A DNA stretch of 64,000 bases from Blastocatellia bacterium (GTDB lineage: Bacteria; Acidobacteriota; Blastocatellia; Chloracidobacteriales; JADJPF01). Shown one piece after another: positions 24,277 through 24,606 of this stretch. Made by a program: the position numbers and the translations under genes. Each line of letters starts with the position of its first letter. The stretch's first letter is position 1. Under the pieces are notes generated by a model. The model saw nothing but the letters and a program-made list of their open reading frames with translations, ran no database searches and was not told the DNA's origin. The stretch is taken from NCBI GenBank assembly GCA_016713405.1, contig JADJPF010000015.1:1-64000 (forward strand). The letters are read 5' to 3'.

Positions 24277-24340
24277 ATCAGAAAACTTAGTTTACATTGT
24301 ACTAAATACACTGTAAACTAAGTTTTCTGATATTTTAATC
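24277..24340 (+). terminator. Perfect 20-bp hairpin followed by ATTTTAATCTT; probable terminator of the 23820 ORF
   Basis: The arms 24277-24296 and 24312-24331 are exact reverse complements, with a 15-nt loop. Confidence 0.45.
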
Positions 24341-24361
24341 TTAAGCCCCAACGGGGCGGCA

Positions 24362-24521
24362 TATTATACGTAGGGTTTCAACCCTACGTATAATAGTATA
24401 GTATTTACAGAGTCACGAACTTGACGACATAATTAACTTATTGAATTTAATATGTTTATTATGTTGTCGCTACGCGACTCTGTAATATTATATTACAATA
24501 CGTAGGGTTGAAACCCTACGC
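24362..24521. repeat. Nested palindromic element of about 160 bp: two copies of the CGTAGGGTT-NN-AACCCTACG palindrome flanking a central imperfect inverted repeat
   Basis: Palindrome A is 24362-24395 (16-bp arms). Palindrome A' is 24501-24520. The central inverted repeat pairs 24405-24433 with 24458-24485. The whole element is symmetric about position 24445. Confidence 0.6.
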
Positions 24522-24606
24522 TACAATTATTTCGTCACGCGCATGACTTAAGAAATTGAAAAAATATTAACTTACTTTGTTTACAGTATACTAAATAATT
24601 TTAATC

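Follow-up and report, generated by a model that had tools for sequence, protein, structure and literature searches.

RUP, Correia/NEMIS and Nezha, from Streptococcus pneumoniae, Neisseria and cyanobacteria, respectively, are bacterial MITEs of the IS630/Tc1-mariner type, and RUP is tied to IS630-Spn1. The three are listed as MITEs (PMC3733652), and duplication of a TA target is a hallmark of the IS630 family (PMC2170065). REP/RAYT systems have been treated by Di Nocera et al. 2013 (as 'TIRtrons', PMC3733652), Nunvar 2010 (PMC2817692) and Quentin 2018 (PMC6006769), the last of whom distinguishes a subclass 1.2 that is generally without terminal hairpins. Acido-Lenti-1 (RF01687) goes back to Weinberg et al. 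2010, a paper that names two phyla for the motif, Acidobacteria among them, and describes only an occasional proximity to group II introns (PMC2864571). It is filed as an sRNA gene, and as late as 2026 a preprint gives its function as unknown (10.64898/2026.02.09.704811). We found no link between Acido-Lenti-1 and a transposase in the open-access literature. IS630-end MITEs, REP/RAYT systems and Acido-Lenti-1 are each already known; here we compare all three with a highly structured segment of a vault-like locus from a Blastocatellia bacterium.

The segment occupies the gap between a small ORF and a gene for a VIT+vWA protein within the window, that is, the whole 64-kb stretch of DNA that was analysed (Table 1). 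The 136-aa product of the small ORF is identical to IPK14_17220 of a Blastocatellia bacterium MAG (Acidobacteriota; NCBI). A first-pass annotation of the window had described this gap as far more structured than the other intergenic regions, and this holds: ranked by length, the first three local inverted repeats in the 64-kb window all fall inside it, and the predicted RNA fold of 24340-24560 reaches -98.4 kcal/mol, as opposed to -42.3 +/- 4.2 kcal/mol in shuffles (z = -13.4). The hairpins, the palindrome, the two cores spaced by 132, the inner repeats, the overall symmetry and the bracketing repeats listed in that annotation are likewise all present, at the coordinates of Table 1. The core pattern was matched in 0 of 100 window shuffles, and the palindromic features exceed chance. 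A scan of positions 23600-25000 returned no intrinsic terminator (G+C-rich stem followed by a T run), and the promoter-like sites, 10 against 6.8 +/- 2.8 expected, represent an uninformative excess. A candidate -35 box of the VIT-vWA gene follows the insertion described below at a distance of about 15 nt.

Table 1 Coordinates of the structured segment and of its neighbours in the window.
Feature	Position	Strand	Description
MVP-like gene	upstream of gap	+	MVP_shoulder, Vault_3
136-aa ORF	23820-24230	+	upstream border of gap
Hairpin	24277-24301 / 24307-24331		25-nt arms, 96% complementary; outer 20 bp perfect
Solo terminal inverted repeat relic	24277-24302		right-end orientation; ATCAGAAAACTTAGTTTACATTGTAC
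Bracketing direct repeats, first pair	24285-24308 / 24574-24597		88%
Bracketing direct repeats, second pair	24332-24342 / 24598-24608		100%
9-nt repeat TACTAAATA	24300-24308 and 24589-24597		encloses both TA copies
TA target copies	24303-24304 (left), 24592-24593 (right)		
Putative complete MITE	24305-24591		287 bp, near-palindromic foldback; defined by the indel relative to L122
Left terminal inverted repeat	24305-24336	+	AATACACTGTAAACTAAGTTTTCTGATATTTT
Right terminal inverted repeat	24561-24591	-	reverse complement GTATACTGTAAACAAAGTAAGTTAATATTTT
Acido-Lenti-1 (RF01687) module, left	24344-24388	-	cmscan 36.8 bits, E = 1.1e-6
Second hairpin, left module	24345-24357		GCCCCAACGGGGC (GCCCC-AAC-GGGGC); 11-nt linker to core
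Palindrome around left core	24362-24377 / 24380-24395		16-nt arms, 100% complementary, 2-nt centre
Left core (core hairpin)	24369-24388		CGTAGGGTT-TC-AACCCTACG
Central palindromic spacer	24389-24500		112 nt between cores; symmetry centre 24445/24446
Inner inverted repeats	24405-24417 / 24473-24485 and 24423-24445 / 24446-24468		
Inner short hairpins in spacer	24412-24425; 24466-24478		GTCACGAACTTGAC; GTCGCTACGCGAC
Acido-Lenti-1 module, right	24501-24548	+	cmscan 28 bits, E = 2.5e-4
Right core	24501-24520		GA centre
Weak second hairpin, right module	24534-24547		GTCACGCGCATGAC; 13-nt linker CTACAATTATTTC to core
VIT+vWA protein gene	start 24857	+	downstream border of gap
Hydrolase gene and Ser/Thr kinase-AAA-TPR gene	downstream of gap	+	all locus genes co-oriented

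Contigs from other sequencing runs that encode the same 136-aa protein were compared with the window. One of these, L122, differs from the window at 2 of 2400 nt on the upstream side and at 2 of 741 nt on the downstream side (4/3141; 99.9% identical), and it lacks exactly 289 nt, corresponding to the 287-bp MITE plus one TA. Its empty junction reads ...ACATTGTACTAAATAATTTTAATC, i.e. ...ACATTGTACTAAATA|ATTTTAATCTTGACAG. Two further contigs, L121 and L123, represent the filled allele; both end within the element, and both display a compensated change in a palindrome arm. A relative with 90% identity, L125, has no element and a different gene downstream. Homologs of the 136-aa ORF number only four, of which one (P0004) is in another context and L125 is non-syntenic downstream. 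The segment is therefore seen as an insertion/deletion polymorphism whose borders are IS630-type terminal inverted repeats, and it is dispensable for the vault-like locus, since it is absent from L122 and L125. We consider it unlikely that L122 is an assembly artefact: its junction, ACATTGTAC, and the right junction of the window, ACAGTATAC, differ at three positions, so that the k-mers across the former should not stem from a filled allele. The terminal repeats and the independent homologous copies elsewhere speak for an insertion in the lineage of the window rather than a deletion in L122; alternatively, the empty allele of L122 could have arisen by deletion between the 9-nt repeats.

The two ends of the element, the right one being reverse-complemented, have ACTGTAAAC-AAGT......ATATTTT in common and are paired by an inverted-repeat scan. 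The element-end pattern is GTACA[CG]TGTAAACTAAGT, and five loci were obtained when metagenome contigs were searched with ACTGTAAACWAAGT......ATATTTT, the terminal sequence. In L128 and L131, the same end of about 31 nt borders an element of about 1.2 kb with ORFs for a 146-aa HTH protein and a DDE_3 protein of about 230 aa; the end on the orfB side in L131, GTACACTGTAAACTAAGTTTTGGTATATTTT, and the end in L128, ATACACTGTAAACTAAGTTTTTTGATATTTT, match the left end in the window. The transposase of the 1.2-kb element belongs to the IS630 family according to Pfam and to the NCBIfam IS630 model (118-135 bits, cutoff 100). Both IS copies come from metagenomic organisms other than the source genome. 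Close homologs on longer contigs (L133, L135 and L136) make the full IS visible, and the clean copy in L133 reads C-TA-[GTACAGTGTAATTTAAGT...ACTTAAATTACACTGTAC]-TA-G, with CTAG as the target and the TA duplicated. No IS630 transposase with matching ends is encoded in the 64-kb window, and among the best 120 of more than 7900 IS630 homologs none is named Blastocatellia. Judged from its ends, the segment 24305-24591 appears to be a MITE with IS630-type termini.

The indel comprises 287 + 2 nt with TA at both ends, and a 9-nt repeat spans the junctions. Because the TA copies sit inside this repeat, the exact length of the target duplication is ambiguous, and TA, TAA, CTAAA and the 9-nt repeat itself each fit the window. 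A strict TA duplication would make the left end 1 nt longer than the right one, as is likewise the case in the homologous copy L130 (see below), while symmetric ends in the window would call for a duplication of odd length, either 3 or 5. The near-direct repeats that bracket the segment had been taken in the first-pass annotation as a hint of a mobile foldback element. The indel in L122 and the IS630-type terminal repeats bear out such an element, and the bracketing repeats do mark its insertion, but they did not arise by target duplication alone: on the left, an older solo terminal repeat is joined to the target, and on the right, the right end that belongs to the MITE itself is joined to the duplicated target.

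The same organization accounts for the hairpin 24277-24331. Its left arm occurs in L122 and matches an IS630-type end, so that the hairpin is made up of a solo terminal repeat, a TA and the left end of the MITE. The reverse complement of this solo relic, GTACAATGTAAACTAAGTTTTCTGAT, fits the IS630-type end consensus and agrees with the MITE left end at 24 of 26 positions. Its presence in the empty allele makes it native to the site; because of that and of its fit to the consensus, the view that insertion produced the hairpin by duplicating the flank in inverted orientation was rejected. Head-to-head junctions of the type TIR-TA-TIR also occur at both IS ends in L131 and in the order [MITE][IS][MITE] in L135 and L136. 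Since the ends finish in ...GTAC, each insertion would remake a C-TA-G/A-like site, the preferred target, at its own border, and this recreated site may explain the TIR-TA-TIR junction of the window.

Homologous MITEs are situated in contexts unrelated to the vault-like locus. L130 is full-length; over 302 nt it shows 76% identity, and it is flanked by a repeat of its own, TTAAC. L132 contains an RF01687 match of 43.7 bits. Both follow one plan: end, CTTAAG, hairpin2, linker, core ... core, linker, hairpin2, end. These two copies and a solo end, L129, are on three contigs of one metagenome, Ga0268299. The stems vary among the MITE copies with pairing retained (GCCCC/GGGGC, GTACC/GGTAC, GCCCT/AGGGC). 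Elsewhere in the 64-kb window, neither the core nor the ends of the MITE recur, so that the window has a single copy of the element, and no ORF of at least 20 aa lies wholly within 24305-24591. In L128 and L131 the transposase gene starts right after the end repeat, and the interior of the MITE is not a remnant of the IS.

Instead of IS sequence, the interior seems to consist of two head-to-head copies of a two-hairpin module, Acido-Lenti-1 of Rfam, separated by a central spacer that is one long stem in the predicted fold and can be aligned with L130. At gathering thresholds, Rfam gave no match on the window, the left module falling 0.2 bit short of the RF01687 gathering score of 37 bits; the matches of Table 1 appear in E-value mode only, and RF01687 scores in other loci range from 37 to 50 bits. 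Matches to miRNA families, also seen in E-value mode, were set aside as generic long hairpins far under their gathering scores. The right core is the exact reverse complement of the left one, with a start-to-start spacing of 132.

The core is by no means confined to this locus. When 185,579 species genomes were scanned for CGTAGGGTTNNAACCCTACG, at least 120 loci emerged; among the matches listed, nearly all belong to Bacteroidota or to Ca. Spyradosoma, a genus of Verrucomicrobiota, and single genomes contain many of them; a hand count of these same matches gave at least 32 loci for Adhaeribacter soli and at least 15 for one Ca. Spyradosoma MAG. The core CGTAGGGTTnnAACCCTACG is multi-copy in many genomes of Bacteroidota and Verrucomicrobiota, and the composite of core and second hairpin also occurs in loci of Bacteroidales, Ca. 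Spyradosoma and Kapaibacterium. Among the matches listed, the cores form two classes, one with a TTTAAA centre and without the second hairpin, the other with a GA/AA or TC/TT centre and a hairpin of the GCCCCnnnGGGGC type 10-13 nt off, as in the window. Many loci of the latter class reach the RF01687 gathering score. The first-pass annotation had gone so far as to link the element, as speculation, to the small RNAs of vaults; that link is not supported, as the element is absent from the near-identical L122 and the module of core and second hairpin is found in many unrelated contexts and phyla.

The centre dinucleotide is polar. Among the matches listed, the second hairpin is 3' of 23 cores with a GA/AA centre and 5' of 22 cores with a TC/TT centre, the exceptions being one TC-centre core with its hairpin 3' and two TT-centre cores with hairpins on both sides. 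The right module of the window, with its GA centre and its second hairpin 3', agrees with this rule. Such polarity is easier to reconcile with a folded single strand that is recognised strand-specifically than with symmetric binding to a duplex. The dimeric DNA-binding protein that had originally been suggested from the 2-nt centres is thus unneeded.

A second feature of these loci is their association with Y1 transposases. A gene of the Pfam family Y1_Tnp is present in at least six of the at least 120 core loci (L015, L020, L031, L052, L059 and L069), in each case about 100-420 nt from the cores or from RF01687 matches. The order in L015 is [hairpin2-core]-gene-[core-hairpin2], which is the doublet of the window except that a gene stands where the window has its 112-nt spacer. 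Low-copy IS200-like Y1 genes flanked by the modules are found in Bacteroidota, Verrucomicrobiota and Planctomycetota. In a reverse test, six homologs of one Y1 protein (41-70% identity) were picked regardless of hairpins, the sole criteria being identity and the length of the contig. Short palindromes were present within 300 nt of the gene in 6/6; four of the six were of the GGGTT-loop-ACCC type (e.g. CGCAGGGTTGAAACCCTGCG and CGATGGGTTTCAAACCCATCG), L139 (AACGGGCTTTAGCCCGTT) and L140 (CCAGGGGCGAAAGCCCCTGG) had palindromes of different sequence, and RF01687 matches were obtained in two of the six, one at 38 bits.

The Y1 protein clusters are of low copy, and some of them are named RayT by JGI. 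The proteins score as IS200/IS605 (NF033573), and the E. coli-type RayT model gives 25 bits versus a cutoff of 80. With a length of about 145-149 aa and the motifs NHIH/DHIH, WQ and YI[KR]NQ..HH, they would seem to resemble subclass 1.2 of Quentin 2018 (PMC6006769). By tblastn, no Y1 transposase is encoded in the 64-kb window. Multi-copy and flanking Y1 (RAYT-like) genes in other genomes, the core palindrome appears to behave like a REP. As the modules elsewhere have these two properties, with Y1 being an HUH enzyme, the cargo of the MITE is best read as a gene-less doublet of the REP/RAYT type.

Based on the above data, we propose that 24305-24591 is a non-autonomous MITE of the IS630/Tc1-mariner superfamily, moved in trans by an IS630 transposase and carrying a gene-less REP-type doublet as cargo; we put the probability of this reading at roughly 0.85. 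An IS630-family DDE transposase encoded elsewhere would recognise the terminal inverted repeats of about 31 nt, excise the element and paste it into the TA that borders the older solo repeat 24277-24302, and this particular copy presumably moved in that way. The palindromes would owe their form to Y1 enzymes that recognise folded single-stranded DNA elsewhere, and not to a local function, and any effects on neighbours, such as blocked read-through into the VIT-vWA gene, would be incidental. Among the three natures suggested in the first-pass annotation, the MITE is thereby upheld, through the empty site and the IS630-type ends, and the structured ncRNA and the protein-binding array are disfavoured.

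A different account would make the hairpin doublet itself the mobile unit, moved like a REPIN or BIME by a Y1 (RAYT-like) transposase via single-stranded intermediates, with IS630-like ends that are incidental. The modules are indeed multi-copy and flank Y1 genes in several phyla, the arrangement in the window equals [hairpin2-core]-gene-[core-hairpin2] without the gene, and tandem doublets without IS630 ends are found in L070. The borders of the indel, however, coincide with IS630-type ends plus TA, 40 and 43 nt outside the modules, the architecture of ends plus doublet is retained in L130 and L132 (76% identity), and a Y1 gene is missing from the 64-kb window; we therefore regard this account as improbable.

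Lower still is the probability that the segment encodes a functional sRNA of the Acido-Lenti-1 type, or acts in cis as a leader or terminator for an MVP / VIT-vWA operon, and such a role can be called very unlikely. In its favour are the high stability of the predicted fold, the covariation from which RF01687 was put forward as an RNA (PMC2864571), the position between co-oriented genes, and stems that differ among MITE copies yet preserve pairing. Templated correction can, however, keep the arms complementary without selection, and the compensated change in L121 and L123 is consistent with this. The element is missing not only from the 90% identical L125 but also from the 99.9% identical L122, its two modules are oppositely oriented so that no transcript has both in sense, modules of this kind turn up in several phyla and in unrelated settings, and 23600-25000 has no site resembling an intrinsic terminator. 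The perfect palindromes with their 2-nt centres and the overall symmetry about 24445 might also suggest a locus-specific operator array for a dimeric DNA-binding protein, or a cruciform regulatory region. This we consider the least probable of the explanations and close to negligible, as the element is polymorphic at the locus and dispersed elsewhere, and polar centres that predict the side of the second hairpin are unexpected for a symmetric dimer site.

Within the proposed MITE, the two layers may differ in origin. The element could be a chimera in which a REP doublet of a Y1 (RAYT-like) system is enclosed by IS630 ends, so that a DDE cut-and-paste enzyme would spread HUH-dependent hairpins; as a corollary, Acido-Lenti-1 would not be an RNA gene but a DNA hairpin that partners a Y1 subclass resembling subclass 1.2 of Quentin 2018, for which hairpins of this sort were reported to be lacking. 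We advance this as a tentative proposal, with odds that fall a little short of even. It would give the orphan Acido-Lenti-1 a context, with modules that flank Y1 genes and are also able to ride in IS630-type MITEs, and, if confirmed, genome annotations of RF01687 matches as 'ncRNA genes' would need revision. For the vault-like locus, the consequence is that its structured segment is dispensable mobile DNA, not to be read as a bacterial analogue of vault RNA. The filled and empty strains constitute a natural pair for the effect of the MITE on VIT-vWA expression.

With eukaryotic vault RNAs, the element has in common its neighbourhood alone, between MVP-like and VIT-vWA genes; unlike them, it is dispensable and present in unrelated contexts, and there is no relation in sequence or structure. 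With RUP, Correia/NEMIS and Nezha, several features are shared: all are small and non-coding, have terminal repeats in common with IS630-family IS, form a long hairpin, reside in intergenic DNA beside genes and are polymorphic in presence or absence among strains, and insertion at TA is a likely further point in common. The differences are that the interior here would be a REP-like pair of two-hairpin modules rather than a deleted IS, that the flanking repeat exceeds TA (5-9 nt here, 5-8 nt in L130), and that the host phylum is Acidobacteriota.

The modules of the window resemble Acido-Lenti-1 in their two hairpins and in the linker of the CUAC... type, but score just under the gathering threshold; and unlike the sRNA under which that family is filed, they behave as a repeated DNA module that lies within a transposon here and beside Y1 genes elsewhere. 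REP, REPIN and BIME elements and TIRtrons are matched by the short GTAG palindromes, which are multi-copy and extragenic in other genomes, by the inverted doublets that fold into long structures and, as in REP/RAYT systems, by the occurrence of the same hairpins on either side of a low-copy IS200-like Y1 gene in other genomes. Unlike in REPs, the GTAG is placed within the stem instead of forming an unpaired 5' foot, and each unit has a second hairpin; and unlike a REPIN, the doublet of the window would have moved as the cargo of an IS630-type MITE.

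Among the matches listed from the species-genome scan for the core palindrome (L003-L120), those in Adhaeribacter, Cytophagales and Chitinophagales have a constant palindrome, GTAG-CGTAGGGTTTAAACCCTACG-CTAC (58 of 70 scorable copies), as the tip of hairpins that differ from locus to locus; perfect complementarity extends further outward from it by a median of ~11 nt, into 56 different outer stems. This pattern suggests that this palindrome was inserted in the loops of pre-existing hairpins, or that its flanks were copied in inverted order by some process. Some of these hairpins have the look of bidirectional terminators, and nested GTAG units are present within some.

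In the filled alleles of two other samples (L121 and L123), the hairpin formed by the solo end and the MITE end reads ACTTTG...CAAAGT, versus ACTTAG...CTAAGT in the window. Since this double change is compensated, the hairpin is still perfect, which is consistent with either templated correction of quasi-palindromes or selection for pairing. What looks like another palindrome-perfecting change affects the left-core linker, in which the usual ...ATTGTAG is gone and is replaced by ATTATA, a perfect complement of the other flank of the core that yields a palindrome of 34 bp; this change probably reduces the Rfam score.

The IS630-type ends are modular and combine with various cargos, as a second, different MITE of ~150 bp possesses the same ends joined to an unrelated interior. 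This MITE lies on both sides of an IS copy in L135 and L136 (contigs bearing a full IS630-family IS), with a TA common to MITE and IS at each junction. L070, a locus from a Ca. Spyradosoma MAG, contains a tandem array in which the head-to-head doublet (hairpin2-core variant ... core-hairpin2) recurs four times, about every 250 nt, and IS630-type ends are absent from this array.

Coordinates of the features (window positions unless a locus is named)
Feature	Position	Remark
Solo-end/MITE-end hairpin	24285-24323	L121 4250-4300; L123 2945-2995
Left-core linker palindrome	24362-24395
~150-bp MITE	L135 2367-2560 and 3700-3832; L136
Tandem doublets	L070 2380-3420
GTAG-CGTAGGGTTTAAACCCTACG-CTAC tip hairpins, examples	L075 ~6160-6230; L032 ~2650-2730; L044
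Promoter-like site TTGACA-17-TAACAT	24607-24635	~15 nt downstream of MITE
Separate ~80-nt hairpin AATATTTAAGCAATCTTCGCG...CGCAAGATTGCTTAAATTTAT	24653-24666 / 24718-24731	14-nt perfect arms; before VIT-vWA start
MVP-like and VIT+vWA genes	21326-27550	adjacent

A segment between the MITE and the VIT-vWA gene (24607-24735) is found in filled and empty alleles alike. Its ~80-nt hairpin, for which an Rfam search of the region gave no match, may be a 5'-UTR structure.

The MVP-like protein encoded next to the VIT+vWA protein contains MVP_shoulder (3e-32) and Vault_3 domains. L125, a 90%-identity relative, retains the MVP gene together with the small ORF, and its downstream gene is a different one. 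In eukaryotic vaults, MVP is partnered by VPARP, which itself carries VIT and vWA domains.
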